Positions 201-63,696 of a stretch of DNA of 64,000 bases are shown here, piece by piece (the stretch's first letter is position 1; the number at the start of each line of letters is the position of its first letter). Location: positions 4,299 through 68,298 of the forward strand of contig QHUS01000046.1 in assembly GCA_003222035.1 (NCBI GenBank), written 5' to 3'. A program made the position numbers and the translations under genes. The notes below the pieces were generated by a model. The model saw only the letters and a program-made list of their open reading frames with translations. It had not been told where the DNA came from and searched no databases. The DNA is from Gemmatimonadota bacterium. GTDB lineage: Bacteria > Gemmatimonadota > Gemmatimonadetes > Gemmatimonadales > GWC2-71-9.

Positions 201-1318
201 GCTGCGTCCCGCGCCAGGCGCCGCGCCTCGGCATCCGCGGCGAGCACTGCCGCGAGCGACCCGGCGTCGCTGGCGTCGTGCCTCGCGAGCGCGCGCTCGA
301 TGGTCGCAGCAATTCGACCGAACGGGATTTTTCCGTCCAAGAAGAGCTGGACCGCCACCTCGTTGGCGGCGTTGAACACGGTCGGGGCCGTCCCTCCGGC
401 CGCCGCGGCGACGCGCCCGAGCCCGTACGCCGGATACCGTTCCTTGACGAGGGGCTCGAACGTGAGCGCGCCCGCGGCGACGGGATCGAAGCGGCGCGGG
501 CCCGTATCGGGAACCCGCTCGGGGTGCGTGAGCGCGTACAGGATGGGCAGCTCCATCGTAGGGAAGCCCACCTGCGCCAGGACGGAACCGTCCACGAACT
601 CGACGAACGCGTGCACCACGGATTGCGGGTGCACGACGACGTCCACCGCGTCATAGGGCACGTCGAATAGGAAATGTGCCTCGATGACCTCGAGGGCCTT
701 GTTGACGAGCGTCGCCGAGTCCACCGTGATCTTCTTCCCCATCTTCCATGTCGGGTGCCGCAGCGCCTCCTCGACCGTGGCAGCGGCGACCCGCTCGGCG
801 CTCCACGTGCGGAACGGCCCGCCCGAGGCGGTGAGGATGAGACGCGCGAGCTCCCCGGATCGCCGCCCCGTGATGCACTGCAGCACGGCACTGTGTTCCG
901 AGTCCACGGGCACGATCTCGCCGCCCCCCTCGCGCGCGGTGCGGGTGACGAGCTCACCGGCCATGACGAGCGTTTCCTTGTTCGCGAGAGCCACCCGCTT
1001 CCCTGCCGCCAGCGCCGCGAGCGTCGCCTCGAGCCCCGCGGCGCCCACGATCCCGTTCACCACGATCTGCACATCGGGCCGCGTCACTGCTTCTATCAGG
1101 CACTCAGGCCCTTTCCCATTTCCCGCTTCCCGTTTCCCCGAGTTCACCAGGCCCACGTAGCCCGGCTTCCACTCCGCAGCCTGGCGCTGCAATAGCTCCC
1201 CGTTCGAGTGAGCGGTCAGCGCGGCGACCCGAAACCGGTCTCGCTGACGGCCCAACACCTGGAGAGTCGCGCAGCCGATCGACCCCGTGGATCCGAGGAT
1301 TGCCACGCCGACGGTCAT
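197..1318 (-). CDS. dxr: 1-deoxy-D-xylulose 5-phosphate reductoisomerase
   Basis: ORF 197..1993 trimmed to the internal ATG at 1316-1318: MTVGVAILGSTGSIGCATLQVL...LANKETLV...SEHSA, typical of Dxr. The upstream part of the ORF is Arg-rich read-through across cdsA. ATGA overlap with the cdsA stop. Confidence 0.9.
   Translation of the reverse strand: MTVGVAILGSTGSIGCATLQVLGRQRDRFRVAALTAHSNGELLQRQAAEWKPGYVGLVNSGKREAGNGKGPECLIEAVTRPDVQIVVNGIVGAAGLEATLAALAAGKRVALANKETLVMAGELVTRTAREGGGEIVPVDSEHSAVLQCITGRRSGELARLILTASGGPFRTWSAERVAAATVEEALRHPTWKMGKKITVDSATLVNKALEVIEAHFLFDVPYDAVDVVVHPQSVVHAFVEFVDGSVLAQVGFPTMELPILYALTHPERVPDTGPRRFDPVAAGALTFEPLVKERYPAYGLGRVAAAAGGTAPTVFNAANEVAVQLFLDGKIPFGRIAATIERALARHDASDAGSLAAVLAADAEARRLARDAA
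1113..1140. repeat. 4x7-nt array TTCCCNN inside dxr (in frame)
   Basis: TTCC recurs at 1113, 1120, 1127 and 1134: TTCCCAT TTCCCGC TTCCCGT TTCCCCG. It encodes GKREAGNGKG in a region of Dxr that I recall as variable. Confidence 0.7.
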
Positions 1319-2166
1319 GCCAGGTCCAGGATCCGGAGCAACGCTGCGGTGACGGGCAGAACGAAGTACAGCGAGTCCAGGCGGTCCAACACGCCCCCGT
1401 GTCCGGGGATGAGCATCGAAGAGTCTTTGACGCCGACTTCGCGTTTGAAGAGCGACTCGGCCACGTCGCCGACCTGAGCAGCAAAGGCGGTGATCAGCCC
1501 GATCCCGGCGAGCTGCCACATCGGAAGACCGAGGGCCACGCGCTTCAGCACCAGGGGGCCGTACGCGATCGCCGCGAGGGCGCCGCCCCCCATGCCGGCC
1601 ACGGCGCCGGCCCACGTCTTCTTGGGCGACAGCACCGGGGCCAGCTTGGGACCGCCGATCAAAGCACCGCCGGCCATCGCGCACGTGTCGCACACCCACG
1701 TGATGACGAGCGGCAGCGCCGCCAGGGCGACCGACCCTCGCGGGTGCGCGTCGACGTGGGGGCCGTGCCGGATTGCGACGATGAACGAGAGCAGTGCCGA
1801 GGCGTAGAGGGGACCGAAGACGGTCACGGCGAGCGTGGTGAGGGGACGGTGCTCCGGACCACGGGCGGTAGCCACGACATGCGTGATGATCAGCCAGATG
1901 GCCGCGACGTACAGCACCGGCTCCCAGTCGGCGTAGCCCTTCACCCAGTAGATCGCGAGCGGACAGATCGCTGCCGCGACGAAGCCGATCCACTCGAGCG
2001 GCTCGATGCCCTGCTTGCGGGCCAGATCGTACACCTCGCGCGTGCCCAGCACCCCCAGGATGGCCAGGAAGCCCGCCAGCACCCAGCCGCCGAGCGAGAG
2101 GATCAGCAGCGTGCCGGCGATGGCGGGGACGGCGAACGCGATTCGCACGAGCAGGTTGCGGCTCAT
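1315..2166 (-). CDS. cdsA: phosphatidate cytidylyltransferase
   Basis: ORF 1315..2490 trimmed to ATG 2164-2166 (MSRNLLVRIAFAVPAIAG...). Multi-pass membrane protein with the C-terminal motif SLFKREVGVKDSSMLIPGHGGVLDRLDS. ATGA overlap with the uppS stop. Confidence 0.85.
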   Translation of the reverse strand: MSRNLLVRIAFAVPAIAGTLLILSLGGWVLAGFLAILGVLGTREVYDLARKQGIEPLEWIGFVAAAICPLAIYWVKGYADWEPVLYVAAIWLIITHVVATARGPEHRPLTTLAVTVFGPLYASALLSFIVAIRHGPHVDAHPRGSVALAALPLVITWVCDTCAMAGGALIGGPKLAPVLSPKKTWAGAVAGMGGGALAAIAYGPLVLKRVALGLPMWQLAGIGLITAFAAQVGDVAESLFKREVGVKDSSMLIPGHGGVLDRLDSLYFVLPVTAALLRILDLA

Positions 2167-2906
2167 GGTGCGGTGACTCTCCCGAATCGCCGCTCGCGGC
2201 CCTGATAGTCGAGGATTGCCTGGAACAGGTCGCGGCGCGTCACGTCGGGCCACAGGACCGGCGTGACGTAGAGCTCGGTATAGGCGAGCTGCCACAACAG
2301 GAAATTGGAGAGCCGCCACTCGCCCGACGTGCGGATCAGCAGGTCGGGGTCGCTCCATGGCGCGGTGTACAGCTTTTCGCGTACTGCACCCTCGTCGATG
2401 TCCTCGAGTCGCTTCACGCCCTTGAGGACGTCTTCGGCGAGGAGCCGCGCCGCACGTGCCAGCTCCCCGCGCGAGGAGTACGAGATGCACAGGTTGAGCG
2501 CGAGCCGGGTCTGGTCGCGGGTTTCGCGCTCGATGCGCTCGACCGCGGCGCGGGCCCCGGGCGAGAGCCGGGTCCGGTCGCCCAGGACGTGGACGGCGAC
2601 CCCCTGGCTCCGCAGCTCCATAATTTCCCGGGCGATGTACTCCTCGAGCAACTGCATGAGCGCCGAGATCTCGGATACCGGGCGCTGCCAGTTTTCCTCC
2701 GAGAAGGCGAACAGCGTGAGCACCTCCACGCCGGCCTCGATGGCCCCCTCGACGACTTCGCGCACGGCTTGCATACCGGTGCGGTGCCCCAGCGACCGCG
2801 GCAGCAGGCGCTCACGGGCCCATCGGCCGTTACCGTCCATAATCACGGCGATGTGACGCGGAACGGCCCCGTTGAGGCGGATCTGCGCCAGCAGGTCGTC
2901 CGCCAT
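2163..2906 (-). CDS. uppS: undecaprenyl diphosphate synthase (cis-isoprenyl transferase)
   Basis: PRHIAVIMDGNGRWA and RTSGEWRLSNFLLWQLAYTELY motifs. Confidence 0.9.
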   Translation of the reverse strand: MADDLLAQIRLNGAVPRHIAVIMDGNGRWARERLLPRSLGHRTGMQAVREVVEGAIEAGVEVLTLFAFSEENWQRPVSEISALMQLLEEYIAREIMELRSQGVAVHVLGDRTRLSPGARAAVERIERETRDQTRLALNLCISYSSRGELARAARLLAEDVLKGVKRLEDIDEGAVREKLYTAPWSDPDLLIRTSGEWRLSNFLLWQLAYTELYVTPVLWPDVTRRDLFQAILDYQGRERRFGRVTAP

Positions 2907-2907
2907 T

Positions 2908-7328: not shown

Positions 7329-8572
7329 GCGGCCTCCAGCGCTGCCACCGTCTCCACGTGAGCGGTCTGAGGGAACAAATCGAACGCCCGCACTGCGGTT
7401 ACGCGGTAGGTGGCGCTCAGCCGGTGCAAGTCGCGAGCCAGGGTCGCGGGATCGCACGAGATGTAGACCAACCGGCCGACCGGATCCCCGGTGAGCCGGA
7501 GTGTGACGTTCCAGTGCAAACCACCGCGTGGCGGATTGACCACGACGGCGCTCGGCTCGGGGAGCGTGGAGATGACGTCTTCGGCTCGGCCTGCGATGAA
7601 CCGCACGGGACGGGGCACGTTTCGTCCGCGGGCCCAATCGATCGCCTGCTCGTCCGCGTCGACACTCACCACCTGCGCCCCGCGCTCCGCCAACTCGACG
7701 GCCGTGTCGCCGATCCCCCCATACAGGTCCCAGACCACGGCGCCCCGCAAGTCCCCCAGCTGCTCGACCGCCCAGCGGCGCGCGATCACGCCCATCTCGG
7801 GGTTGATCGGCTCGAACGCCGTCGCGGGGAATCCCGTGGCGGGACCGGCCATCACGCGCGCGGCACCATCCACCGGCTGCCACCAGCAGATGACCGCGTC
7901 GCGATCGGGGAGGTTGAGCGCGTCGCGCAAAGTCGCGGCGTTCTGCCACGGCTCGCCGGCCGATTCGGCGATGACGTGGCGCCGGCCCTCGCGGTCGAGA
8001 CGGAGCGTAAGATGGGTGAGCTTTGCGGGCAGCAGCGCGAGCTGCGGCCGCAGCTCGCGCCACAACGCCGTCAACCGGAAGTCCGCGACGTGGCAGTCGA
8101 GCAATGCGAATACCGCTGCGGGTCGGTCATATGGATGGAATCCGACTGTCCGACTGTCGGACCGTCCGACCGCTTTGACGCTCATCGAGAGCTTCGCGCG
8201 GTAGCGCCACTCCTCCACCGCTTCGACGATCTCGGGATCGGCCAGGTCCAGCTTGGCGATCCGCCGTAGAGCGTCCCCCACGATCGCGCGCTTGGCTGCC
8301 AGCTGTGCCTCGTACGTCATGTGCTGCAGCTGGCAGCCCCCGCAGCGATCCCCTGTGTAATGGGGACAAGCCGCCGTGACGCGGTCGGCCCCGGGGGCGA
8401 CCACCTCGGCGAGCTGCCCGCGCGCGAAGGTCTTGTGCAGCCGCACGCCGTCACGGAGCCGCACTCGCTCTCCGGGCGCGGTGCGGGCGACGAACACGGC
8501 GCGTCCGTCCGCCAGCCGTCCGACCCCGTCGCCCCCCGCCGCGATCGCCGTAATCGCGACCACGTTGCTCAT
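7325..8572 (-). CDS. RNA (uracil-5-)-methyltransferase, RlmD/TrmA family, with an N-terminal TRAM domain
   Basis: TRAM-like N-terminus, a Cys cluster (CPHYTGDRCGGCQLQH), the SAM-binding motif VWDLYGGIGD, and a C-terminal ISCDPATLARD motif. Confidence 0.85.
   Translation of the reverse strand: MSNVVAITAIAAGGDGVGRLADGRAVFVARTAPGERVRLRDGVRLHKTFARGQLAEVVAPGADRVTAACPHYTGDRCGGCQLQHMTYEAQLAAKRAIVGDALRRIAKLDLADPEIVEAVEEWRYRAKLSMSVKAVGRSDSRTVGFHPYDRPAAVFALLDCHVADFRLTALWRELRPQLALLPAKLTHLTLRLDREGRRHVIAESAGEPWQNAATLRDALNLPDRDAVICWWQPVDGAARVMAGPATGFPATAFEPINPEMGVIARRWAVEQLGDLRGAVVWDLYGGIGDTAVELAERGAQVVSVDADEQAIDWARGRNVPRPVRFIAGRAEDVISTLPEPSAVVVNPPRGGLHWNVTLRLTGDPVGRLVYISCDPATLARDLHRLSATYRVTAVRAFDLFPQTAHVETVAALEAA
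8141..8172. repeat. 4x8-nt array (TCCGACTG-type) inside the RlmD-like gene (in frame)
   Basis: TCCGACTG TCCGACTG TCGGACCG TCCGACCG. It encodes GRSDSRTVG. Confidence 0.8.
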
Positions 8573-10086
8573 TGACCGATCGCTTCCCGCCGCGCGGTGG
8601 CAAGCCAGACGGACGGTCGGACAGTCGGACCCGCAGGCTGGGGTGGCGTGGGGGCCGACGCTGCGGCTTGCTCGGCCAGCAGGGCCGCCACCGCTGCGAG
8701 GGGTCGCAGCAGCTCGGGGGATGGCTCGCCGACGAGCAGGCGCGCCCCGGCGCGCTCGAGGTAGGTGATGTCGATGTCGCCGCGCTGGAATTCCGGATCG
8801 TCCATCACGCGCAGGTGGAAGGCCTGCGACGACGGGATGCCGACGATCGCGAGCTCCCGCAGGGCACGCCGCATCCGCTCGAGGGCCACGCCCCGCGTCT
8901 CACCCCAGACGATCAGCTTCGCGATCAGCGAGTCGTAGTACGTCGTGATCTCGTTGCCCTCCTCGACGCCCCCATCCCAGCGCACGCCCGGGCCGCCCGG
9001 GATGCGCAGGTATTGCACGACGCCCGTCGCAGGCATGAAATCGTTCGCCGGATCCTCCGCCGTGATGCGACATTCGATCGCATGCCCGCGTGGCTGTAAG
9101 GTGCCGGCGTGCACGCGCAGCGGCTGACCCATTGCGACGCGGAGTTGCTCGCGCACGATGTCCACACCGTAGACGAGTTCGGTCACCGGGTGCTCGACCT
9201 GGAGACGCGTGTTCATCTCCAGGAAGTAGAACTCGCCGCTGGGCGCCAGCAGGAACTCGATCGTACCGGCACCGAGGTATCCGACCGCGCCGGCAGCCGA
9301 GGCCGCCGACTCGCTCATGCGGCGGCGCAAGGGCGGTGTGACCGCCACTGACGGCGCCTCTTCGATGAGCTTCTGATGCCGGCGCTGGATGCTGCACTCC
9401 CGCTCGCCCAACGCGACCACGCGTCCGAACGAGTCCGCCAGGATCTGGATCTCGATGTGTCGTGGCCGCTCGAGGTACTTCTCGAGGTACACCTCTCCGG
9501 CGCCGAACGCCTTGAGGGCTTCGCCCGTGGCCGCTTCGAACGCGCTGTCCAGCTCCGCCTCCTCGCGCACGAGTCGCATGCCCTTCCCTCCCCCGCCGGC
9601 CACGGCCTTCAGCAACACCGGATAGCCCAGTCGCGCCGCCTCCGCGCGGGCCTGCACGTGATCCGCGACCGCGCGCGTGCTGCCCGGAACGACTGGCACG
9701 CCCGCCTGCTGCATGCGGCGCCGCGCTTCAATCTTATCGCCCATCGCTCGAATCGCGGCCGCTGACGGTCCGATGAACACGAGGCCCGCCTCGACCACCG
9801 CCTCCGCGAAGGGCGCGCGCTCGGACAGGAAGCCGTACCCGGGATGTACCGCGTCGCACTGGGTGTCGCGGGCTGCGGCGACGAGTTTCGCGATGTCGAG
9901 ATACGACTCGGCCGCGGGTGCCGGGCCGATGGGCACCGCCATATCGGCGGCGCGCACGTGCGGCGACAGTCGGTCGGCCTCGGAGTACACCGCCACGGCT
10001 GTGAGGCCCTCCTCGTGGCACGCGCGGATCACCCGGAGCGCGATCTCTCCGCGATTCGCTACAAGGACTCGTTTAATAGTGGGCAT
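8569..10086 (-). CDS. accC: biotin carboxylase subunit of an acetyl/propionyl-CoA carboxylase (no fused BCCP)
   Basis: [19 protein letters not shown]...HPGYGFLSE...GGGGKGMR...[14 protein letters not shown] motifs. ATGA overlap with the downstream gene. Confidence 0.88.
8607..8630. repeat. 3x8-nt array (NGTCGGAC-type) at the 3' end of accC (in frame)
   Basis: AGACGGAC GGTCGGAC AGTCGGAC. It encodes PTVRPSV. It is complementary in sense to the array at 8141-8172, 435 nt away. Confidence 0.75.
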
Positions 10087-15231: not shown

Positions 15232-16505
15232 GTTGCCCGCATGCGTCGCAGGTCGGCGAAGAACCGGGGATAGCTGATCGCAACGGATGCTCGCTCGGAG
15301 AGCCGCACGTCCGCTCCCGGAACGGTGCCAAGGACGGCAAACGCCATCGCCAGTCGGTGATCCCGCGCCGTCTCGACCCGGCCGCGCGGCGGCGTGCCCG
15401 TGCCGCAAACGAACAGGTCGTTGCCACGCGCCTCCGCCTCCCCGCCCACCGCGCGCAAGTTCGCGGCGATGAGCTCGAGCCGATTGCTCTCCTTCACCCG
15501 CAGCTCGCCCACTTCGCGGAACACCGTTTCCACTCCACGCGCCGCGCGGCTCGCCAGGACCCCGAGGATGGGGACTTCGTCGACCAGGGTCGGGATCTCG
15601 GCGGCACCCACTTCCGTGCCCCGGAGCCGAGCGGGTCGCACGACCAGGTCCGCGACCGGCTCACCGCCTTCGTTCCGCAGGTTCACTCGCTCGACGTGCG
15701 CCCCCATGCGTTCGAGCACCACGAGGAATCCCGTGCGGGTGGGGTTCACGCCGACGTTTTCGATGAGCAGCTCGCCGGCTTCGGCCAACACGGCCGCGGC
15801 GACGAGAAATGCCGCCGACGATGCGTCTCCGGGAACGGCAAGACGGAACGACGGCACGCTGCCACGACGCTCGGGGGGGCGGGGCTCGAACACGATCGCG
15901 CCGTCGCGCTCGTGCAGGCCCAGCCCCAGGTGCACCAGGAGCCGCTCGGTGTGGTCGCGGGAACGATACGGTTCGCGGATCGTGACGCTCACGTTGCCCG
16001 TGAGTCCCGCGAGCAGGAGCGCGCTCTTGATCTGGGCGCTGGCGACCGGGGTGGTGTAGGTCAGCGGGCGCAGGCGACCGCCGCGAATCCTGAGCGGAAG
16101 AGCGTCGCCGCCTTTCTCGGTGATCTCGGCACCCATCGTACGAAGCGGCTCGGTGACCCGCCGCATCGGGCGACGGCGCAGGGACGCGTCACCCGTCAAC
16201 GTCGCCGCGAATCGTTGCCCGGCGAGGATCCCGAGCATGAGACGCGCCGTCGTGCCGGAGTTGCCGCAATTCAAGCGGGAAGCGGGATGCGTGATGCGGG
16301 ATGCGTGCACGCTTACCGGGCCAGCCGCCCGGATGGGTGATATGTCCGCGCCGAGCTGACGCAGCACTCTTGCGGTCGACTTGACGTCCTCACCGGTGAG
16401 CAGACCGCTCAGTTCGCTCGTCCCACGGGCGAGAGCGGCGAGCATCAAGACGCGATGCGAGATGCTCTTGTCCCCCGGCGGTCGGACGACGCCCTGCACT
16501 TTCAC
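15228..16505 (-). CDS. aroA: 3-phosphoshikimate 1-carboxyvinyltransferase (EPSP synthase)
   Basis: PGDKSISHRVLMLAALA...GNSGTTARLM motifs. I prefer the GTG start at 16503-16505 (GTGA overlap with the tyrA stop). The alternative is the ATG at 16547. Confidence 0.85.
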   Translation of the reverse strand: MKVQGVVRPPGDKSISHRVLMLAALARGTSELSGLLTGEDVKSTARVLRQLGADISPIRAAGPVSVHASRITHPASRLNCGNSGTTARLMLGILAGQRFAATLTGDASLRRRPMRRVTEPLRTMGAEITEKGGDALPLRIRGGRLRPLTYTTPVASAQIKSALLLAGLTGNVSVTIREPYRSRDHTERLLVHLGLGLHERDGAIVFEPRPPERRGSVPSFRLAVPGDASSAAFLVAAAVLAEAGELLIENVGVNPTRTGFLVVLERMGAHVERVNLRNEGGEPVADLVVRPARLRGTEVGAAEIPTLVDEVPILGVLASRAARGVETVFREVGELRVKESNRLELIAANLRAVGGEAEARGNDLFVCGTGTPPRGRVETARDHRLAMAFAVLGTVPGADVRLSERASVAISYPRFFADLRRMRAT

Positions 16506-43426: not shown

Positions 43427-43427
43427 T

Positions 43428-44003: not shown

Positions 44004-44022
44004 ACCGGGAATCCGCGTGGCG

Positions 44023-44175: not shown

Positions 44176-45078
44176 TTAGCCCGCCTTGAGCGGGTCCACA
44201 AGCCCGAACGCCTTGCCGTCGCGCCCCAGACGACCGGCGACGATATCGGGATCGTGCTCGAACAGCAGCAACCATCCTTCCGCTTCGGCCCGCGCGTACA
44301 GGCGGCGCTTCGACTCGAGCGTCACGAGCGGCTCCAGGTCGTAGCCCATGATCCAGGGGAGCGGGAGATGGGCACTGGTAGGCACAAGGTCCGCCAGGAA
44401 GCACGCCCGTTCGCCCGCGCTCTCGACCAGCACTGACTGATGATACGGCACGTGCCCCGGCGTCGGCATGCACCGGATCCCGGGCACGACCTCCGCGTCA
44501 CCATCGATGGGCGTGAACGGCACCGGCTCGAAATTATGTGGCAGATAGCTCGCCGCCGTGCGCTCGTTGGTGTGGCGCGCGAATTCGAGCTCGCGTTTTT
44601 GGACCACGTACGTCGCCTTCGGGAAGCTCAACTTCGTCGGACGGTCGGACGGTGGGACGGTCGGACCGTCCGGCGCTTGGTCGGCCGGCTCGCGATAGGT
44701 ATTGCCGCCGGCGTGATCGAAATGGAGATGGGTATTGATCACCCAGCGAACGTCATCGGGCCGGTATCGGAGCTCCGCGAGCGCGTCTTCGATCTGGGTC
44801 GGCCCGTGCTTCCCCTGATTCACGACGCCGTAGATGTCCCTAAACTTGTCGTCCTCTTTGTTCCCCAGGCCCGTGTCGACCAGGACGAGCCCGTCGCCGT
44901 GCTCGATCAGGAGGCAGCGCAGCGCGAGGGGGATGCGATTGCGATCGTCGGCGGGGATGCGGCGTTGCCACAGCGGCTTCGGTACCACGCCGAACATCGC
45001 GCCGCCGTCGAGGTGCTGCCTGCCGCCCTCCAGGGCATGACACTTCAGTCGACCGACCGTGAGAGACGTGTGGGGCAT
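44176..45078 (-). CDS. MBL-fold metallo-hydrolase
   Basis: LVDTGLG...THLHFDHAGGN (HxHxDH) motifs. The ATG at 45076-45078 shares one base with the upstream TGA. Confidence 0.8.
   Translation of the reverse strand: MPHTSLTVGRLKCHALEGGRQHLDGGAMFGVVPKPLWQRRIPADDRNRIPLALRCLLIEHGDGLVLVDTGLGNKEDDKFRDIYGVVNQGKHGPTQIEDALAELRYRPDDVRWVINTHLHFDHAGGNTYREPADQAPDGPTVPPSDRPTKLSFPKATYVVQKRELEFARHTNERTAASYLPHNFEPVPFTPIDGDAEVVPGIRCMPTPGHVPYHQSVLVESAGERACFLADLVPTSAHLPLPWIMGYDLEPLVTLESKRRLYARAEAEGWLLLFEHDPDIVAGRLGRDGKAFGLVDPLKAG
44636..44675. repeat. 5x8-nt array GTCGGACN inside the MBL-fold hydrolase gene (in frame)
   Basis: GTCGGACG GTCGGACG GTGGGACG GTCGGACC GTCCGGCG. It encodes PDGPTVPPSDRPT. Confidence 0.8.
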
Positions 45079-46941: not shown

Positions 46942-46943
46942 GG

Positions 46944-47095
46944 GGCGGAATCTAACGCGGAACGCGGAAGGCGGAGCCGAAGTCGGAACGCGGAAGGCGG
47001 AACGCGGAACAGCAAGGAAAGGTCGCTCGGCTTGCCGCCCTCGGAGCGAAGTTCGCTTGACTGTTCCGCATTCCGCGTTCCGAGTTCCGAGTTCT
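46944..47095. repeat. heptamer-armed inverted-repeat element, copy A (GCGGAAN units / loop / NTTCCGC units)
   Basis: CGGAA recurs at 46958, 46965, (46972, 46978), 46984, 46991, 46998 and 47005. TTCCG recurs at 47064, 47071, 47078 and 47085. The inner 26 nt of the arms are 23/26 complementary, with a 52-nt loop. The element fills the rex-stop to arcA-ATG gap. Confidence 0.9.
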
Positions 47096-47731: not shown

Positions 47732-48550
47732 TCGTGCGCTCCAACGCAAGAGTCGGGCGAAGATTTCCGGCGCCAACGTCTCGGGACGCGCCGCGGGATC
47801 GAGCCCGAGCGCCCCGAGTCCTTCCTCGACCTGTGCGGCCGGGCGCCCTGTCGCACCCAGCAGCACGTTGCGCAGCTGTTTGCGGCGGCGCGCGAAGCAG
47901 GCGGTGACGAACCGGCGAAACGCCGCGAGCTCGGCGACCGCGACGAGCGGATGGGCGAGCGGCGTGAGACGGAGCAGCGCGCTCGCGACGTTGGGGCGTG
48001 GCGTGAACGCGCCGGCGCGAACCGGGAACAGTTTCTCCACGCGACACACGGCTTGCACACCGACCGAGGGTGCGCCGTACGTCTTCGAGCCCGGCCGCGC
48101 CGCGATGCGATCGGCCACTTCGGCCTGGACGAGAAACACGATGCACGCCGGGAGCGGCGGCGTGAGGGCTTTGTCGATCAGCGGGGAGGTGATGGCGTAG
48201 GGGATGTTGCCGATCACCTTCAATTGCGGATTGGCGATTGCGGATTGCGGATTGGCAAGGCAAGCTACGGCCAGCGCATGCCAGTCCTGCTTGAGGGCGT
48301 CCCCCGCCACGACGTCCACATTGCCCAATCCCCCATCCGCAATCCGCAATCCGCAATCATGAGCCAGCCGGCGGTCCCGTTCGATGGCGATTACGTAACG
48401 TACGCGAGGGGCGAGGACGGCCGTCAGGCTCCCCTCCCCCGCCCCGATCTCGACCACGACGTCCCCGGGCGTCGGATCGAGGGCGTCGACGATGCGCTGC
48501 AGGATGTTCCGGTCGGTGAGGAAGTGCTGGCCGAGGGGGGGACGGGTCAC
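47726..48550 (-). CDS. rsmA: 16S rRNA (adenine1518/1519-N6)-dimethyltransferase
   Basis: LGQHFL, VVEIGAGEGSLT and IGNIPYAITSP motifs. GTGA overlap with the upstream stop. Contains two in-frame heptamer arrays (see the repeat feature). Confidence 0.9.
   Translation of the reverse strand: MTRPPLGQHFLTDRNILQRIVDALDPTPGDVVVEIGAGEGSLTAVLAPRVRYVIAIERDRRLAHDCGLRIADGGLGNVDVVAGDALKQDWHALAVACLANPQSAIANPQLKVIGNIPYAITSPLIDKALTPPLPACIVFLVQAEVADRIAARPGSKTYGAPSVGVQAVCRVEKLFPVRAGAFTPRPNVASALLRLTPLAHPLVAVAELAAFRRFVTACFARRRKQLRNVLLGATGRPAAQVEEGLGALGLDPAARPETLAPEIFARLLRWSARL
48224..48356. repeat. pair of inverted 5x7-nt arrays (TTGCGGA / TCCGCAA) inside the ksgA coding sequence
   Basis: 48224-48258 is TTGCGGA TTGGCGA TTGCGGA TTGCGGA TTGGCAA. 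48322-48356 is TGCCCAA TCCCCCA TCCGCAA TCCGCAA TCCGCAA. They are 29/35 complementary with a 63-nt spacer. Both are in frame (peptides LANPQSAIANPQ and DCGLRIADGGL). Confidence 0.9.
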
Positions 48551-52777: not shown

Positions 52778-52795
52778 CCCCGCCCCCTTCCCAGC

Positions 52796-52895
52796 GCGGA
52801 AGTCGGAACGCGGAACGCGGAACAGAAATGGGAGGTCGCTCGGCGCGCGACGCCGGTTTCGATGTTCCGCGTTTCGCCTTCCGCGTTCCGCGTTC
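52796..52895. repeat. heptamer-armed inverted-repeat element, copy B (same family as 46944..47095)
   Basis: GCGGAAG TCGGAAC GCGGAAC GCGGAAC, a 40-nt loop, then GTTCCGC GTTTCGC CTTCCGC GTTCCGC GTTC. The arms are 24/28 complementary. The loop shares AGGTCGCTCGGC with copy A. The element ends inside the recJ TGA. Confidence 0.9.
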
Positions 52896-55301: not shown

Positions 55302-57027
55302 CTCTCCTCCTCTTCGCGATCTTGTAGCGCGGGTAACGCTTGCGGAGCTCGTCGAACACGCGGCGCTTCTCCGCAATCAGGGATACCTGTCGCTCGGGGC
55401 TTTCGAACGGCAGCTGGTCGTCGAGCTGCTCCAGGTGCCGCTCGAGCCGCCGGGCTTCCATCCAGCTCACGGCCAGCTCGTACATTTCGTTCGGATCACG
55501 CCCGCCGAGCCCCTCCGCCTTGAGCAGCTCGTAGGCCCGCGCGGAGGTGTCGTCGAGCGCCAGGACCGCGTCGTCGGCGACGCTCTCGAACACGGCGCGG
55601 TACGGCGCGAACTCGACTTCCTCGGGGTCGACGGCGTCGGTCACGCGACTCTTCCAGGGTTCGCCCTCGAGCATCAGGAGCAGGAGGGCTTTCTCGGCGC
55701 TGGCGGGCAGGACGGGGGAGGACGGGGGAGGAGGGTGGAGGACGGTGGAGGGGCCACGCGCCCCGACTTCGCGCTCGAGAACGTCCTTCCGCACCCCGGC
55801 CGCCTCCGCTGCCCGGGAGATGTAGAGCTCCCGGGTAATGGGATCTTTCGCCGCCCGAATCGTCGGCAGGAGGCGATCGAGGGCTCGGCGCCGACCCGGT
55901 AGGGTACCGAAGAATCCTTTGCGGTCGAGGATCTGGATCTTCCGCTCCAGCACGTCGACCGCGTCCTCGAGGATCTGCTCGAGCGCCGCAGCTCCCCCCT
56001 TCTGCACGAGCGTGTCGGGGTCCTCGCCGCCGGGGAGCGTGGCCACGCTGACGCGCAACCCTTCGCGCAGCAGCTCGTCGCCCGCCCGGAAGGTGGCGCG
56101 CAGGCCGGCCTCGTCGGAGTCGTACAAGAGGATCACCTGCGGCGCGTGGCGTTTCACCAGCTGGGCCTGGTCCGGCGTGAGCCCGGTCCCGAGCGGCGCC
56201 CCCACCTCCTCGATACCGGCGAGCGACAGACGAAGCACGTCGAAATACCCCTCGACCAGGATGGCGCGCTCCGCCTTGCGCATCGCGTGCTTCGCGACGT
56301 GCAGGTTGTAGAGCAGTTGCCCTTTGTGGAAGATCGGGGTGTCCGGGGAGTTGAGATACTTGGGCTCTCCTTCGCCGAGAATGCGACCGCCGAACCCGAC
56401 CACGCGGCCCCGCAGGTCGTGAATTGGGAAGAGCAAACGACCGCGGGACCGGGGCGCGAGCGTGCCGTCCTCGCGTTTAGCCAACAGACCCGCCTCGAGG
56501 AGCACTTCGTCACGCACGCCCAAGACTTTCATCGCCTCGAGGAACGCCTTCCCCTTCGGGGCGTACCCGAGGCCCAGCGGCAGCACGGTGTCGAGATCGA
56601 GGCGGCGGGTCTTCAGGTAATCGCGAGCGATTTGGGCTTCGGGACTGTCGCGCAACTGGTGGGCGAACCAATCCGCCGCCGCGGCGACGGCGCTATAGAG
56701 CGGCTCGCGCGGATCGGGACCGGTGGGGCCGCGCTCGGGGATCGCGATTCCCACGCGACGCGCCACCTCGCGGACCGCGCTGGGATAGTCCATGCCGAGC
56801 TTCTTCATCAAGAACGTGAAGACGTCACCGCCGGCGTGACACACGAAGCAGTAGAACATCCCCTTCCGGGGGATGACCGCGAAGTTGCGATGCGCCCCGC
56901 CGTGAAACGGACACGCCGCCCGGTAATCGGATCCGGTGCGTTTCAACTCGACGTGCTCGCCGATGATCCCGACCAGGTCGGCCGCTTCGCGGACCTGCTC
57001 GATCACGTCGTCGGGAATCAGGCTCAC
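55285..57027 (-). CDS. dnaG: DNA primase
   Basis: Zinc finger CPFHGGAHRNFAV...CFVCHAGGD and TOPRIM (VEGYFD...DSDEAG). GTGA overlap with mutS2. Confidence 0.9.
   Translation of the reverse strand: MSLIPDDVIEQVREAADLVGIIGEHVELKRTGSDYRAACPFHGGAHRNFAVIPRKGMFYCFVCHAGGDVFTFLMKKLGMDYPSAVREVARRVGIAIPERGPTGPDPREPLYSAVAAAADWFAHQLRDSPEAQIARDYLKTRRLDLDTVLPLGLGYAPKGKAFLEAMKVLGVRDEVLLEAGLLAKREDGTLAPRSRGRLLFPIHDLRGRVVGFGGRILGEGEPKYLNSPDTPIFHKGQLLYNLHVAKHAMRKAERAILVEGYFDVLRLSLAGIEEVGAPLGTGLTPDQAQLVKRHAPQVILLYDSDEAGLRATFRAGDELLREGLRVSVATLPGGEDPDTLVQKGGAAALEQILEDAVDVLERKIQILDRKGFFGTLPGRRRALDRLLPTIRAAKDPITRELYISRAAEAAGVRKDVLEREVGARGPSTVLHPPPPSSPVLPASAEKALLLLMLEGEPWKSRVTDAVDPEEVEFAPYRAVFESVADDAVLALDDTSARAYELLKAEGLGGRDPNEMYELAVSWMEARRLERHLEQLDDQLPFESPERQVSLIAEKRRVFDELRKRYPRYKIAKRRRGAPGP
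55711..55750. repeat. 4x10-nt array GA(C/G)GG(G/T)GGAG inside dnaG (in frame)
   Basis: GACGGGGGAG GACGGGGGAG GAGGGTGGAG GACGGTGGAG. It encodes STVLHPPPPSSPVL in the linker before the C-terminal domain. Confidence 0.85.
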
Positions 57028-59300
57028 GCGCGGAACTCCACGATGGTGACGCCATGGCCGCCCTGATTCGGCGGCGCAAAGCCGAAGCGCGTGACCCGTG
57101 AGTCGGCGGCGAGCCGCTCGTGCACGAACTGACGCAGGGCCCCGGTGCCCTTACCGTGAATTACGCGGAGATACGGCAAATCGGCCGACACGGCATCGTC
57201 GAGGGCCTTGACGAGCAGCGGCTCGGCTTCGGCAACGCGGAGGCCGATGAGGGAGATCTCCGCAGCCGCGTCGACGGACGGTGTGCGAGCGGTGGAGGGC
57301 GGTCGAGGATGGTGGAGGGCGGTGGAGGGAGAGGCCTTACGTGCGCCCTTCAGCTCGTCCAGCGACATCCACCCTTCCCTGGCCGGATCCCCGGCCGTTT
57401 CCCCGGCCGTTTGTTCGATTGCTTTTTCTACGAGCCGCCGCGCTTCTTTCGCCGTCGCCTCGTCTACCGCGGCGCGCGCCCGGCCGAGCGCTTCTTCGAC
57501 CTTGCGGCGGGCTTCCAGGAGGTAGGCCCGCGCCTGCTCGCGCGCCTGGCGTTCGAGCCCCGACGCGCGCGCCTTCACCTCCTGTTCGCGTGCGGCTACC
57601 TCGGTGGCCCGAGTCTCGACCCGCTCGGCGTCGGCACGGAGCGCAGAGTCGCGGGCGGCGAGCTCTTGCTCACGGGCCTCGAGCTCCCGGGCGCGCGCCT
57701 CGACGGAGGCCAGGAGCGCGTCGAGCGTGCGCTCGGCGCGGGGCACGGCGCGCTCCGCGATCTCCAGGACCGGAGCGGCGACCCCGAGGCGGCGCGCGAT
57801 AGCCAGCCCGTAGGAGCGACCCGGTACGCCCTTGAGCAGGCGATAGGTGGGGGTCAACGTCTCGGCGTCGAACTGAAGCGACGCGTTCACGATCCCCACG
57901 GTGTCGGCGGCGAGCTGCTTCAAGGCACCCAGGTGAGTTGTCGCCAGCGTCACCGCGCGACGACGGGTGAGCGTCTGCAATACCGCCGTCGCCAGCGCGC
58001 CACCCTCGGCCGGGTCGGTGCCGCTGCCGATCTCGTCGAGCAGAATCAGCGATCCGGCACCCGCCCGCTCGAGAATGTCTCGCAGGACAGCCACGTGAGC
58101 GGAAAACGTCGACAGGCTCGCCGCGATCGACTGCCGATCGCCGATGTCCGCGAACACGTCGGTGAATACCGGAAGCACGGATTGCGGACCGATGGGCGGG
58201 ATGATGCCGCTCTGCGCCATGAGGACGAGCAGGCCCACGGCTTTGATCAGCACCGTCTTGCCACCAGTGTTTGGCCCGGAGACCAGCACGGTGAATTCGT
58301 CAGGTGCCAGGACGAGATCGAAGGGAACGGCATCGGGGACGAGCAGCGGGTGCCTGCCGCCGCGGATCTCCAGCGCACCCGGGCCGATCGACGGCGCGAA
58401 GCCGTTCACCTCCACCGCGTACCGCGCCCGAGCGCACAGGTCGTCAAACGCGATGCACATCTCCCACGCGGCGGCAATCGCCTCGCTCTCGGGGCGCAAC
58501 AGCTCGGTGAGGTCCCGCAGCACCTGCAGGACTTCGCGCTGCTGCGCAACCTCCGCCGCGCGCAGGGCGTTGCCGAGCTCGATCACTTCCGGCGGCTCGA
58601 CGAACACCGTGGCCCGCGTCGCCGACTCGTCGTGCACGATCCCGCCGATCCGGGCCCGCGCCGTGCTGCGCACGGGGATCACGTAGCGGCCTTCGCGCAC
58701 CGTGACGGCGGCATCGGGCGCACGCTCGGCGGGATCGAGGGCGGCGAGCATGGCTTCGAGCTTCTGGACCAGCCGAGCGCGTGCGTCACGAACGGAGCGG
58801 CGGGCGTGCGCAAGCCCGCGCGACGCACCATCCAGCACCTGACCGTCGCCGTCGAGCGAAGCGGCAAGCCGCTGCTCCAGTGCCTTCGGGGGAAGCTTCA
58901 CGCGGAGCGCCGCGGTCCGCGGCGCGTCGGTCTCGAGGCGCGCGAGCTCGGCAGCCACGACGCGCGCGGCCACCAGCGTGCGGCCTACGCCTGCCAGCGC
59001 CGCTCCCTCGAGTGCGCTCCCCGGCACGCCCAGCAGCTCGACCACAGCCGCGATGTCGGGGACGGGCTCGGCGCGGATGCCGTCGTCGGTGAGCAGCAGG
59101 GCGGCGAGCTCCGCCACCTGCGCGAGGGCGTCGCGGACGGTGCCGGGATCGGTGGAGGGGACGCGGTGGGTCACGCGCGCGGCGCCAAGCGGTCCCACGG
59201 CATGCGCCGCCACTCGCTCCAGCGCGGCCGGGAACTCGAGCGTCTCCAGGACTCCAGGGGTCCGTGGGCTGGCGCCCGGCGTCGGTGCCCCACCGGTCAT
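57024..59300 (-). CDS. mutS2: endonuclease MutS2 (with an Smr domain)
   Basis: Walker A SGPNTGGKT, DEIGSGTDP, and the C-terminal Smr motif LRVIHGKGTGALR. Confidence 0.9.
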   Translation of the reverse strand: MTGGAPTPGASPRTPGVLETLEFPAALERVAAHAVGPLGAARVTHRVPSTDPGTVRDALAQVAELAALLLTDDGIRAEPVPDIAAVVELLGVPGSALEGAALAGVGRTLVAARVVAAELARLETDAPRTAALRVKLPPKALEQRLAASLDGDGQVLDGASRGLAHARRSVRDARARLVQKLEAMLAALDPAERAPDAAVTVREGRYVIPVRSTARARIGGIVHDESATRATVFVEPPEVIELGNALRAAEVAQQREVLQVLRDLTELLRPESEAIAAAWEMCIAFDDLCARARYAVEVNGFAPSIGPGALEIRGGRHPLLVPDAVPFDLVLAPDEFTVLVSGPNTGGKTVLIKAVGLLVLMAQSGIIPPIGPQSVLPVFTDVFADIGDRQSIAASLSTFSAHVAVLRDILERAGAGSLILLDEIGSGTDPAEGGALATAVLQTLTRRRAVTLATTHLGALKQLAADTVGIVNASLQFDAETLTPTYRLLKGVPGRSYGLAIARRLGVAAPVLEIAERAVPRAERTLDALLASVEARARELEAREQELAARDSALRADAERVETRATEVAAREQEVKARASGLERQAREQARAYLLEARRKVEEALGRARAAVDEATAKEARRLVEKAIEQTAGETAGDPAREGWMSLDELKGARKASPSTALHHPRPPSTARTPSVDAAAEISLIGLRVAEAEPLLVKALDDAVSADLPYLRVIHGKGTGALRQFVHERLAADSRVTRFGFAPPNQGGHGVTIVEFRA
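57291..57330. repeat. 4x10-nt array GGTGGAGGNN inside mutS2 (in frame)
   Basis: GGTGGAGGGC GGTCGAGGAT GGTGGAGGGC GGTGGAGGGA. It encodes PSTALHHPRPPST in the linker before the Smr domain. A perfect 12-nt tandem duplication (TCCCCGGCCGTT x2) lies at 57388-57411. Confidence 0.85.
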
Positions 59301-62497: not shown

Positions 62498-63641
62498 CGG
62501 TCAAGTCGCGGACCAGGGCGTCGAGGCGGAGCCAGCCTTCGGGCCTGCATACCAAGCGCTCATCCCTAATCTCCACCCAGCCCCGTTCCACCCACTGGTC
62601 GATAAAGGTCGGTAGAGGACGGTAGAGGTCCGTAAGGGGCAACCCCGCATCAGTGCGCAACGAGAGATAGAGGCGTTCCAGTTCCCGCTGCTCGTCGGTG
62701 AGCACTTCCTCGGCCGCGACGGCCGATCGGCCCGCAACGATGGTGCGTCGATACGCCTCCCACTCCCGCACGTTCCAGCGACGTGCGCGGCCGTCGAACG
62801 AATGCGCAGCGGGGCCGAGGCCCAGATAGGGCCGCCCGGACCAGTAGGCGGAGTTGTGTCGCGAGCGGCGGCCGTCGCGCGCGGCGTTCGAGACCTCATA
62901 GAACTGATAGCCGCTGGCCGTGAGCCGCTCGTGCGCCAGAAGATACTCGTCGGCGTATCGCTCGTCGTCGGGCATGGAGGCCGCCCCGCGCGAGATCCAA
63001 CGGGCGAGGGGGGTGCGTTCCTCGACCGCGAGGCCATACAGCGAGAGGTGATCGGGGTGCAGCGCGCACGCGAGATCGAGATCCCGCGCCCACTCCCGCC
63101 CCAGCTCGGCGGGCAACGCGAAGATCAAGTCCAGCGACACATTGCTGATTCCCGCGACGCGGAGCGACCGCACGGCCGTGCTGATCCGCGCCGCATCGTG
63201 CGAGCGATGCATCCATTTCAACACTCCATCGTCGAAGGACTGCGCTCCCAGTGACACGCGATTGATGCCGGCGCGCCGCCAAAGTTCCGCGGACTCGGGC
63301 GTTACGTCTTCGGGATTGGCTTCGAGCGTAACTTCAACGGCGTCACGCGGGGACGGAGGACTAGAAGACGTCGCGCGAAAGGCGTCGCGCAGAGACGTGA
63401 GCAAGGCCGAGATCGCGTCGGGCGGGAGGAGCGAAGGCGTGCCTCCGCCGAAGTAGATTGTCTCCAACCCTTGGCCGAAAACCCCGGGCTTGCGTCCGGG
63501 GTCAGCGGCCGCGACCAGCCGCAACTCCTCCAGCACGGCCTGCACATACTCGCGGGCCGGGATCCGCTTGCGGACCGCGATGGAGAAGTCGCAGTAGGAG
63601 CAGCGCCGGTGGCAGAAGGGGATGTGGAGATAAATATGCAT
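62478..63641 (-). CDS. hemW: radical SAM heme chaperone HemW (HemN-like, oxygen-independent coproporphyrinogen oxidase family)
   Basis: YLHIPFCHRRCSYCDF (CxxxCxxC) and YFGGGTPS motifs. Confidence 0.85.
   Translation of the reverse strand: MHIYLHIPFCHRRCSYCDFSIAVRKRIPAREYVQAVLEELRLVAAADPGRKPGVFGQGLETIYFGGGTPSLLPPDAISALLTSLRDAFRATSSSPPSPRDAVEVTLEANPEDVTPESAELWRRAGINRVSLGAQSFDDGVLKWMHRSHDAARISTAVRSLRVAGISNVSLDLIFALPAELGREWARDLDLACALHPDHLSLYGLAVEERTPLARWISRGAASMPDDERYADEYLLAHERLTASGYQFYEVSNAARDGRRSRHNSAYWSGRPYLGLGPAAHSFDGRARRWNVREWEAYRRTIVAGRSAVAAEEVLTDEQRELERLYLSLRTDAGLPLTDLYRPLPTFIDQWVERGWVEIRDERLVCRPEGWLRLDALVRDLTGAGRAS
62601..62640. repeat. 4x10-nt array GGTAGAGGNN-like inside hemW (in frame)
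   Basis: GATAAAGGTC GGTAGAGGAC GGTAGAGGTC CGTAAGGGGC. It encodes LTDLYRPLPTFI. Confidence 0.7.
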
Positions 63642-63661
63642 CGGGTGAAGCTAATGAACGA

Positions 63662-63696
63662 TTTCCGCAATCCCCAATTCGCACTCCGCACTTCAG
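63662..63696. repeat. single 5x7-nt array (NNTCCGC-like) abutting the dprA stop codon
   Basis: TTTCCGC AATCCCC AATTCGC ACTCCGC ACTTCAG. The last unit contains the dprA TGA (63693-63695). I found no inverted partner. Confidence 0.7.

Follow-up and report, generated by a model that had tools for sequence, protein, structure and literature searches.

Heptamer-array hairpins at gene junctions and in frame inside KsgA of a Gemmatimonadales bacterium, and their rapid turnover

Introduction

The 64-kb stretch of DNA analyzed here (contig QHUS01000046.1 of assembly GCA_003222035.1, positions 4,299 to 68,298; referred to as the window) is a Gemmatimonadales chromosome segment with housekeeping operons throughout. 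It carries short tandem arrays of 7-, 8- or 10-nt units, some of them directly behind stop codons and others in frame inside genes, which raises the question of what produces such arrays and what keeps them in place. An earlier note on the window had listed 16 arrays and attributed them to a lineage-specific repeat-generating or mobile process, combined with selection for RNA hairpins that act as terminators, mRNA stabilizers or processing sites. In the present analysis, the main feature is a hairpin consisting of a G-rich heptamer array of about 4–5 units, a loop and a complementary C-rich array. Compared to the surrounding DNA, these elements have a far higher turnover, and both arms switch their unit type together.

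Results

Arrays and hairpins in the window

All 16 arrays of the earlier note were found at their positions. With Tandem Repeats Finder, nearly all were recovered, at 2.3–4.7 copies each and at 8.4 copies for 46954-47010; the weakest are those at 62601-62640 (2.3 copies), 63662-63696 (75% matches) and 38642-38700. In total, 23 arrays with a period of 7, 8 or 10 nt and at least three copies are present in the window, compared to 1.3 ± 1.2 (maximum 5) in 100 dinucleotide shuffles. For called genes, the corresponding numbers are 17 and, after shuffling of codons within genes, 1.0 ± 1.1. The excess over both types of shuffled control, a comparison suggested in the earlier note, was thus upheld, and no comparable enrichment was seen for periods of 6, 9 and 12, which are usual for coding repeats.

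Four pairs of heptamer arrays (E1, E2, the IF3/L35 hairpin and the KsgA hairpin; Table 1) form the longest inverted repeats in the window; their RNA folding energies range from −47 to −78 kcal/mol and their z-scores from −2.7 to −5.9. Read along the gene strand, E1 starts with a 5′ arm of (TCGGAAC/GCGGAAY)×4, followed by a 48-nt loop that holds the core sequence of the family (see below) in reverse orientation and by about nine GTTCCGC units (−78 kcal/mol, z-score −5.9). E2 consists of (ACGCGGA)×4, a core of 38–40 nt, again in reverse orientation, and (GTTCCGC)×4 (−62.9 kcal/mol). The IF3/L35 hairpin is composed of (GGTGTCA-like)×4, a 14-nt loop and (TGACACC-like)×4, after which the L35 ribosome-binding site AGGA follows (−47.2 kcal/mol, z-score −5.1). 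Inverted pairs at co-directional gene junctions, as described in the earlier note, are therefore present in these three cases, but not at 48224-48356, since this pair lies inside the KsgA open reading frame (ORF).

The distance of 0–5 nt between upstream stop codon and array also holds for E1, E2 and the IF3/L35 hairpin. For other genomes, 63 of 103 stop-to-hairpin distances among the matches listed lie between −4 and +5 nt, as determined by a crude ORF heuristic. The stop codon itself was considered as a degenerate first unit (GGA to TGA), and this was rejected as a weak effect, with 15 of 62 stop codons in phase versus about 9 expected among the matches listed.

At the E1 junction, the motif TTAGATTCCGCCCC is located directly before the ATG of arginine deiminase (ADI; 46942-46960) and is kept in almost all relatives (Rex/ADI junctions, L131-L210). 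The ADI start has no Shine-Dalgarno sequence, and in longer alleles CTTAGCCGGCG is retained as well, some 17 nt upstream. Judged by its sequence, the motif could be a promoter (TTAGCC, 17 nt, TTAGAT) for a leaderless mRNA. It also resembles a C-rich heptamer unit (ATTCCGC).

Turnover of the hairpins

Ten soil-metagenome contigs (L001-L010), 98.6–99.9% identical to the window, served as same-species comparison set, and divergence was expressed as differences per 100 aligned bases across near-identical contigs. E1, the KsgA hairpin and the IF3/L35 hairpin reach values of 4.2, 4.5 and 2.4, respectively, and E2 a value of 36, compared to 0.64 for coding sequence and 0.11 for other intergenic DNA. 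The high value of E2 is accompanied by a complete exchange: in L002, L003 and L131, whose flanks are 99.7% identical, E2 is replaced by a GCGGATT-type element with (TTGCGGA)4 ... (TCCGCAA)4 arms, a different length and the core in opposite orientation. The replacement spans the region from a few bases before the RecJ stop to the first RsmD codons.

Among orthologues, alleles filled with AAC, AAT, ATT or AGT units are found at the Rex/ADI and RecJ/RsmD junctions, as are empty alleles, such as TGAAGCGCGTTAGATTCCGCCCATG. In outgroups, the spacers measure 10–11 nt (Rex/ADI), 0–19 nt (RecJ/RsmD) and 8–10 nt (IF3/L35). The IF3/L35 spacers of relatives (8–38 nt) contain unrelated small hairpins or none, and two loci (L205, L188) carry other heptamer hairpins. 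In the comparison with relatives proposed in the earlier note, arrays are hence present or absent, and unit types switch, at orthologous junctions. As the ancestral spacers comprise only 0–20 nt, an inserted element must touch the stop codon, which explains part of the 0–5-nt regularity.

Two further observations concern these junctions. In the 350-nt Rex/ADI junction of L134, two copies of the 5′ half of the element bracket a duplicated stretch, apparently including the 5′ end of ADI and the 3′ end of Rex; this is either an element-mediated rearrangement or an assembly artefact at the repeat. For RsmD, gene calls differ between 232 amino acids (L001, 2433-3131) and 172 amino acids (L002, 4205-4723), the call on one contig being extended back through the stop-free heptamer hairpin into RecJ. 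Because GCGGA-type arrays are free of stop codons in all frames, gene callers can be misled by them.

A 40-nt core shared between junctions

A gap-free alignment over 40 nt was obtained for 19 loops that come from two junctions and many lineages. The resulting core, approximately AGCAATGGGAGGTCGCTCGCCGAGCGACGCTCGCCTTGAC, is found in one or the other orientation with respect to the genes and together with any of the four GCGGA-NN arm types. Within the window, the exact 12-mer GCCGAGCGACCT is common to the loops of E1 and E2 and has only these two copies. Since the core is found at unrelated junctions and in both orientations, copies of sequence have passed from locus to locus, through either transposition or ectopic conversion in which the arms provide the homology. 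No parent insertion sequence was identified among the window genes searched.

A profile hidden Markov model (HMM) of the core gave 44 matches, all but two of which are located in the window, in conspecific contigs or in the loci of KsgA relatives described below. The two others lie on a contig of a Gemmatimonadales metagenome-assembled genome and on L026 (DASYRW010000035.1, labelled Thermoplasmatota archaeon, 71% GC), which is probably a mis-binned contig. A core common to several phyla was rejected, as the HMM matches Gemmatimonadales-type loci only.

The in-frame hairpin of KsgA

In the KsgA hairpin, the 5′ arm (TTGCGGA)×4 encodes DCGLRIADGGLG and the 3′ arm (CAATCCG)×4 encodes ANPQSAIANPQ, with 69 nt of native coding sequence (NVDVVAGDALKQDWH...) between the arms. 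A metagenome scan with KsgA yielded 80 loci with 58–99% protein identity. Orthologues of at least 64% identity have both arms at the same two sites, built from about 13 different heptamer units, and the G-rich arm is the 5′ arm in every case. Several of the most distant orthologues (57–64% identity) have no such hairpin: four are armless, one has the 5′ array only and one has rudimentary arms. Furthermore, L203 and L198 show one arm only or arms of unequal length.

The peptides of the arms are plain translations of the respective heptamers, namely CGLRIAD/ANPQSAI for GCGGATT, ECGMRNA/IPHSAFR for GCGGAAT, ERGTRNA/VPRSAFR for GCGGAAC and GMRDAGC/HPASRI for GCGGGAT. Other units found in the arms are GGGAAAC, GGGAGAC, GGTGTCA, GGGGAAT and GCGGTGC (also GGGATGC). 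In the KsgA gene of contig L010, arms of the GCGGAAC type replace the GCGGATT-type arms of the window and the total length is unchanged.

Covariation of the arms was analyzed using a codon-guided alignment of 75 distinct sequences. In register, 72.7% of the cells are paired, compared to 32–53% at shifts of 1–3 columns; at shifts of 7, the value is 65–70%, as expected for a 7-nt period. Changes on both sides were found for 23 of the 33 pairs, e.g., T-A, A-T, G-C and C-G at variable unit positions.

Distribution and polarity

For the distribution of the hairpins, one genome per species (185,579 genomes) was scanned with the pattern GCGGANNGCGGA, a gap of 40–70 nt and TCCGCNNTCCGC. This resulted in at least 120 loci, nearly all of which proved on reading to be genuine heptamer-arm hairpins. 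GCGGA-type hairpins occur in at least seven phyla in all; the matches listed include Gemmatimonadota, Acidobacteriota, Planctomycetota, Verrucomicrobiota, Chloroflexota (Thermomicrobiales), Bacteroidota (Saprospiraceae, Rubricoccaceae), Binatia and others. With this range and with the same architecture published for Xanthomonas, the process cannot be called lineage-specific, as the earlier note had done. In the 889 kb of matches listed, 397 of about 550 tandem arrays have a period of 7, and many further unit types are present.

The polarity is nearly uniform. Among the matches listed, the G-rich arm is the 5′ arm in 126 of 128 inverted heptamer pairs, none is reversed and two are ties; for the 27 pairs outside the selection by the search pattern, the ratio is 25 to 0 in favor of the G-rich arm first. 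Reverse-complementing a hairpin preserves its polarity, so that the bias is real. The 128 pairs have a median of 4.6 units per arm, a number to be read with the limit that the search pattern sets on element size.

An unbiased scan of IMG/VR viral contigs gave 22 loci with the G-rich arm first versus 2 of the mirror image. GCGGA-type hairpins are present on 22 contigs classed as viral (L212-L233, IMG/VR), which reflects either acquisition by phages or prophages or misclassified host DNA.

Evidence at the RNA and DNA level

None of the four main hairpins is followed by a U-tract or flagged by a terminator scan, and only 4 of 128 hairpins among the matches listed have a T-rich tail. An intrinsic (Rho-independent) terminator was rejected for this reason and due to the copies inside operons and ORFs, and the terminator role suggested in the earlier note is not supported. 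G-quadruplexes were rejected as well: the GCGGA-NN and GGTGTCA units contain no GGG and hence cannot form them, and four or more GGG tracts were found in only 1 of 128 G-rich arms among the matches listed.

On the sense strand, G:U-type and A:C-type mismatches are about equally common, with 105 versus 92 in the KsgA hairpins and 47 versus 38 in the junction hairpins. Selection specific for the sense RNA was rejected on this basis, the numbers being small and not decisive. The lack of a G:U excess favors constraint or correction acting on the DNA palindrome, or acting equally on both strands. RNA-hairpin selection as put forward in the earlier note therefore stands unproven, despite the strong covariation of the arms.

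In the whole window, a scan with the Rfam gathering thresholds detected a tRNA-Leu only, and a permissive scan of 43300-47200 gave only chance hairpin-like matches far below threshold; the Rfam search recommended earlier thus assigned no family to the arrays. CRISPR, attC and iteron arrays were rejected as well, given that there is no spacer architecture, the GTTRRRY/RYYYAAC consensus fits only at AAC/GTT and there is no replicon context.

Arrays inside other genes

The octamer arrays (unit GTCSGACN) and the decamer arrays (unit CCTCCACCNN, read along the gene strand; Table 1) are all located in genes, as single arrays in linkers or tails and without a nearby inverted partner. The encoded peptides are rich in Pro, Ser, Thr and Arg, e.g., PTVRPSDR and PSTxLHxPxP. 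As stated in the earlier note, the in-gene arrays keep the reading frame and sit in linkers, with Pfam domains continuing on both sides. Compared to orthologues, they are insertions or hypervariable stretches, and not amino acid sequence conserved without nucleotide periodicity; the refuting condition set for them in the earlier note thus did not apply, and the finding stands. The array at 44636-44675, for example, is a 13-residue insertion found only in the species of the window and absent in 22 of 22 orthologues of at most 82% identity. The DnaG linker is hypervariable: at the site of the window's decamer, most relatives carry GMRDAGSGMR...THPASRISHP, and L211 carries an in-frame (GGGATGC)4 / (GCATCCC)4 hairpin (−77 kcal/mol). 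In MutS2, the linker of the same relative (about 88% identity) contains another decamer (CCAACCTCCC) at the corresponding position. The EPSP synthase array reads (GCGGGAT)×4.4 on the plus strand, and GCGGGAT also forms hairpin arms in KsgA and DnaG of relatives.

The arrays at 8607-8630 and 8141-8172 are reverse complements of each other 435 nt apart. They were rejected as a hairpin, since the C-rich array comes first and the pair spans a gene boundary. Of the common grammar proposed in the earlier note for all arrays, the hypervariable linker sites are indeed shared, but only heptamers form hairpin pairs. The octamer and decamer arrays are single in-frame expansions of recent origin at hypervariable linkers and give Pro/Ser/Thr-rich spacers. 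They are best read as side products of the same repeat-prone biology, related to the heptamer hairpins but distinct from them.

Three further in-frame arrays had not been listed before either: (CCCCCT)3.5 at 7204-7224, encoding poly-Gly in the BCCP linker, a 12-mer ×3.2 at 57375-57412, encoding TAGETAGDPARE in MutS2, and an 8/16-mer at 6040-6079 in ribosomal protein S9. In the metallo-beta-lactamase-fold orthologues of L160 and L161, the Gly-rich 7-residue insertions GGGDGGG and VVEGGGG are found. As these lie a few residues upstream of the octamer-encoded site, the loop is a recurrent insertion hotspot.

Table 1. Positions of the hairpins and repeat arrays in the window. ADI, arginine deiminase.
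Feature	Position	Strand	Location	Repeat	Encoded peptide or remark
E1	46942..47093	-	Fills the whole spacer from Rex (stop 47094-47096) to ADI (start 46941)		
E2	52778..52893	-	Fills the spacer from RecJ (stop 52894-52896) to the RsmD start		
IF3/L35 hairpin	43350..43427	-	Fills the spacer from IF3 (stop 43428-43430) to L35		
KsgA hairpin	48223..48358	-	In frame inside the KsgA gene 47726-48550		
infC-leader hairpin	44018..44090	-		(TCCGNNN)×4, then (ACGGNNN)×4	Variable; C-rich arm first
ZapA/RNase Y hairpin	38640..38705	-		(TCCGTCG)×2 arm, partner (CGACGAC/GG)	Weak; C-rich arm first
Single GCGGA-type array	63662..63696	-	Spacer upstream of radical-SAM gene		Degenerate, without inverted partner
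Heptamer array	1113..1140	-	In frame, Dxr	(CGGGAAA)×4	SGKREAGNGK
Heptamer array	16275..16305	-	In frame, EPSP synthase		HASRITHPASR; absent from the earlier list
Octamer array	8141..8172	-	In frame, tRNA/rRNA uracil-methyltransferase-like gene	(GTCSGACN)×4	AVGRSDSRTVG
Octamer array	8607..8630	-	Biotin carboxylase C-terminal tail, beyond last Pfam domain	(GTCCGACN)×3	
Octamer array	41137..41168	-	In frame, PheT linker between B1 and B3_4 domains		LTDRPSVRQSD
Octamer array	44636..44675	-	In frame, metallo-beta-lactamase-fold protein	(GTCCGACC)×4.4	
Decamer array	30863..30902	-	In frame, RecN	(CCTCCACCNN)×4	FTSTIFHRPPPSFT
Decamer array	55711..55750	-	In frame, DnaG linker		PSTVLHPPPPSSPV
Decamer array	57291..57330	-	In frame, MutS2 linker between MutS_V and Smr domains		SPSTALHHPRPPST
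Decamer array	62601..62640	-	C-terminal part of radical-SAM protein		Weak (2.3 copies, Tandem Repeats Finder)

Weak hairpins, the infC leader and gene context

The other hairpin-like features of the window do not belong to the family with the same clarity. In the ZapA/RNase Y hairpin, the (TCCGTCG)×2 arm encodes the final ZapA codons; with −26.2 kcal/mol, a z-score of −1.8 and 11 of 200 shuffles folding as well, it is a marginal member. For the degenerate array at 63662-63696, no stable fold was obtained (z-score +1.3). The array at 44023-44083, listed in the earlier note among the heptamers with a GCGGA/TCCGC core, turned out to be the variable hairpin of a conserved infC leader (−33.5 kcal/mol, z-score −4.3; same-species divergence 0.14%) and probably does not belong to the junction family.

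The spacer upstream of infC (43884-44175, minus strand, 292 nt) is a conserved structured leader without an Rfam match, whose blocks ACGGCAAGCGGGCGCC...GCGCCTCACC and GAGTGCTCTAGGGTT are kept in an alignment of 21 related loci. The variable hairpin is followed by a stem GCGGATTCC..GGAGTCCGC with a T-run (terminator-like, 44003-43985) and then by the Shine-Dalgarno sequence GGAGGAG. The layout resembles that of an attenuator-type leader of the infC-rpmI-rplT operon.

The window has a G+C content of 68.3%, and nearly all of its genes are located on the minus strand. Genes were identified by Pfam scans and by gene calls from near-identical metagenome contigs. They include Dxr, CdsA, UppS, Frr, PyrH, Tsf, S2, S9, L13, BCCP, AccC, S1, Cmk, AroA, RecN, NAD kinase, Dxs, XseA, FolD, RNase Y, ZapA, PheST, L20, L35, IF3, Rex, KsgA, RecJ, DnaG, MutS2, DnaJ and HrcA. 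DnaG relatives at 86–87% identity carry the NCBI name "Gemmatimonadales bacterium". The sole RNA gene detected in the window is the tRNA-Leu (anticodon TAA; 24957-25044, minus strand), the site of which marks a switch between minus- and plus-strand gene blocks. The convergent genes 27859-29463 (plus strand, no Pfam match) and RecN (29390-31111, minus strand) overlap at their 3′ ends by 74 nt (29390-29463). This overlap is unusually long, and one stop or frame may be wrong.

Discussion

Origin of the hairpins

With a probability of about 0.55, the hairpins are selfish, non-autonomous, fast-turnover palindromes with heptamer-array arms, similar to MITEs (miniature transposable elements with inverted repeats) or to REPINs, the hairpin-forming pairs of repetitive extragenic palindromic (REP) sequences. 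The nucleotide-level process of repeat generation or spreading postulated in the earlier note is borne out by the hypervariability among near-identical strains, the unit switches, the 40-nt core and the recent in-frame insertions. In such a process, slippage during replication and conversion between units would lengthen the arrays and make them uniform. Complementarity of the arms may be kept by inter-arm correction within the element or by selection on the palindrome itself, and copies would spread or overwrite one another by ectopic conversion or by means of a transposase. In operon mRNA, the elements would form stems of about 30 bp without U-tracts, which as a likely side effect might act as barrier to 3′-exonucleases or insulate translation.

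Several points weigh against this reading. A selfish palindrome accounts neither for the strict G-first polarity nor for the heptameric period. The KsgA arms flank native coding sequence and hence cannot stem from one simple element insertion. As many hairpins (KsgA, DnaG, other phyla) have no common core, mobility is shown only for the Gemmatimonadales core family, and even there it could equally be explained by ectopic gene conversion. No clear or consistent target-site duplication was found at the orthologous junctions, where CGCG or TAGA repeats at some element ends could be part of the arms. Furthermore, neither a transposase nor a REP-associated tyrosine transposase (RAYT; IS200-like Y1) is among the Pfam-annotated genes of the window, which was the only DNA searched for it, and all RNA-level effects of the hairpins are inferred.

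It is possible but unlikely that the hairpins instead originated locally by polymerase slippage and were retained by selection at the RNA level, the hairpin stabilizing, terminating or processing the mRNA. Different units at the same site across lineages, changes by whole units, the strong covariation of the arms and the position directly after stop codons would all agree with this, as would the slippage proposal of Mrazek 2007, which favors heptamers according to summaries of that work, and the transcription of most Xanthomonas repeats (PMC4692102). A local origin is at odds with the 40-nt core at unrelated junctions in both orientations and with the replacement of a whole element between 99.7%-identical strains. 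On the side of RNA-level selection, U-tracts are missing, G:U mismatches are not in excess over A:C mismatches on the sense strand, and hairpins occur within ORFs, where a terminator or processing site would harm. The proximity to stop codons is largely due to the ancestral spacers of 0–20 nt.

Protein binding would explain other aspects. If the 7-bp units were iterated sites of a DNA- or RNA-binding protein, e.g., a ribbon-helix-helix protein, a nucleoid protein or a transposase at the element ends, GCGGA would be read and the two variable bases would serve as spacer. The conservation of GCGGA, i.e., five of seven positions, across at least seven phyla with lineage-specific loops, the strict period of 7, the narrow unit number (median 4.6 among the matches listed) and the fixed polarity are in line with this idea. 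It is improbable given the about 13 unrelated units at the same KsgA site, including GGGAAAC, GGTGTCA and GGGATGC, the many other unit types in the same genomes and the arrays inside essential ORFs. Moreover, the analysis yielded no candidate protein, and the flanking genes show no apparent regulatory logic.

The polarity itself would follow directly from enzymatic repeat writing, in which a reverse transcriptase or a telomerase-like template-switching polymerase would add G-rich heptamers 5′ to 3′ onto two facing 3′ ends, so that both arms and the fixed polarity would arise in one event. The universal G-rich 5′-to-3′ direction toward the center on both strands, KsgA arms that flank native sequence rather than arriving as one insert, the telomere-like, G-rich units of 7 nt and the joint switching of both arms are compatible with such a mechanism. 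It is nevertheless highly improbable: no candidate enzyme is encoded in the window, some KsgA orthologues are one-armed or have unequal arms (L203, L198), exceptions with the C-rich arm first exist, and the dispersed cores point to copying of whole elements. We know of no repeat-writing enzyme in these bacteria.

Chance or ordinary low-complexity coding sequence in a genome of 68% GC is hardly credible, since the shuffle tests (23 arrays versus 1.3 expected) and the orthologue alignments, in which the in-gene arrays are insertions or hypervariable, refute it for the population as a whole and periods other than multiples of 3 prevail within genes as well, although high GC and Pro/Gly-rich linkers generate some periodicity and a few of the listed arrays are weak (62601-62640, 63662-63696, 38642-38700).

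Comparison with known repeat systems

Strings of GCGGA heptamers were not found in the literature texts searched. The closest precedent to the selfish palindromes considered here are the GGGAATC repeats of Xanthomonas, for which about four units are preferred and 70–75 convergent inverted pairs per genome were described (Rehm et al. 2015, PMC4692102). There, the array of G-rich units is found on the coding strand, at the stop codon or overlapping it, and that of C-rich units precedes the next start; the repeats are enriched between co-directional ORFs and mostly transcribed, and between relatives the copy number varies and the type (single array or pair) is kept (PMC4692102). In Nostoc, arrays of GGGGA(C/T)T heptamers are found (Rehm et al. 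2015, PMC4692102). The elements of the window agree with the Xanthomonas pairs in their 7-nt units, about four per array, in their convergent arrangement and in the G-rich array next to the stop codon, and the layout with the G-rich array on the coding strand is the G-first polarity found here. They differ in that their units contain no G3 tracts for G-quadruplexes, the rationale proposed there, in that they also occur in frame in essential genes and in at least seven other phyla, and in that a 40-nt core marks a dispersed family, the unit type turns over and the arms covary. From this comparison, the hairpins may be read as the soil-phyla counterpart of the Xanthomonas heptamer inverted pairs.

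The over-representation of heptamers was noted still earlier. As summarized in later papers, heptanucleotides are the most abundant class of 5–11-nt repeats and are concentrated in large, high-GC genomes of non-pathogens, for which polymerase slippage linked to a 7-nt polymerase contact was proposed (Mrazek, Guo and Shah 2007, via PMC4679880, PMC4692102). According to these summaries, the survey dealt with direct repeats, and its coding-region repeats were mostly multiples of 3, unlike those of the window; pairing, polarity, in-frame copies and cores are not mentioned in them.

Short multicopy palindromes in co-directional or convergent spacers are also known as REP, bacterial interspersed mosaic elements (BIME) and REPIN in Enterobacteria and Pseudomonas. 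REP and REPIN are transcribed in operons and evolve as populations within genomes, which may be a further likeness to the elements described here. The latter fold as palindromes, and a family with a common core is shown by the two copies within the window and by 44 matches at related loci. Liang, Rudd and Deutscher are said to have reported in 2015 that REPs near stop codons can affect translation and mRNA stability. Unlike REP arms, the arms of the present elements are tandem repeats. The GTAG at the 5′ end typical of REP is not present at the element ends in the sequences inspected, and for the dependence on RAYT, no Y1 transposase is among the genes of the window, to which the search was confined. 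REP are extragenic by definition, in contrast to the KsgA copy and the DnaG copy of a relative, which are translated in frame. Typical of MITEs, which have no coding capacity and measure 50–500 bp, are the arms as terminal inverted repeats, the size of 78–152 nt and the empty and filled alleles at the same junction.

Rickettsia palindromic elements (RPE) are similar as palindromes in frame in housekeeping genes at permissive sites, here KsgA and DnaG. They comprise about 150 bp with conserved sequence and peptide, whereas units and peptides of the present hairpins differ by lineage and the center of the KsgA hairpin is native KsgA sequence. The cyanobacterial short tandemly repeated repetitive (STRR) sequences and the TAACTGA repeats of Beggiatoaceae share the tandem heptamers in 2–6 copies, the mostly intergenic position near starts or stops and the patchy distribution across phyla. 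Unlike the present elements, they are almost always direct, have different, AT-rich units and lie mainly just upstream of start codons; a Maribeggiatoa genome has 169 direct sets and 1 inverted set (MacGregor 2015, PMC4679880).

Consequently, heptamer inverted pairs by stop codons are already published (Rehm 2015), and the excess of heptanucleotides was noted before (Mrazek 2007). New compared to these precedents are the units that do not form G-quadruplexes, the further phyla, the dispersed core, the turnover of units with covarying arms, the quantified polarity and the in-frame copies.

Implications

Heptamers have been known since 2007 as the most over-represented long simple repeats of bacteria, without an accepted mechanism or function. 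The data presented here put constraints on any explanation. The G-first polarity is nearly universal and independent of the strand, the arms covary during the turnover of unit sequences, also within essential genes, and the dispersed cores show copying between loci. The arm length of 4–5 units also holds for units that form no G-quadruplexes, which undercuts the only published rationale.

A more far-reaching and quite unlikely idea is that a dedicated machinery common to many phyla makes and maintains the heptamer-arm hairpins. Candidates would be a polymerase or reverse transcriptase that writes repeats, or a recombinase that reads heptads; it would lay G-rich 7-mers 5′ to 3′ toward the center and match the arms, also around native coding sequence. 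If true, this would be a new class of repeat or palindrome generator that is neither ordinary slippage nor a classical MITE.

In practical terms, the elements cause KsgA, DnaG, MutS2, RecN and other proteins to carry inserted peptides of variable sequence. Gene calling is led astray by them, as seen for RsmD with 232 versus 172 amino acids, and they are hypervariable markers for strain typing of uncultured soil bacteria.

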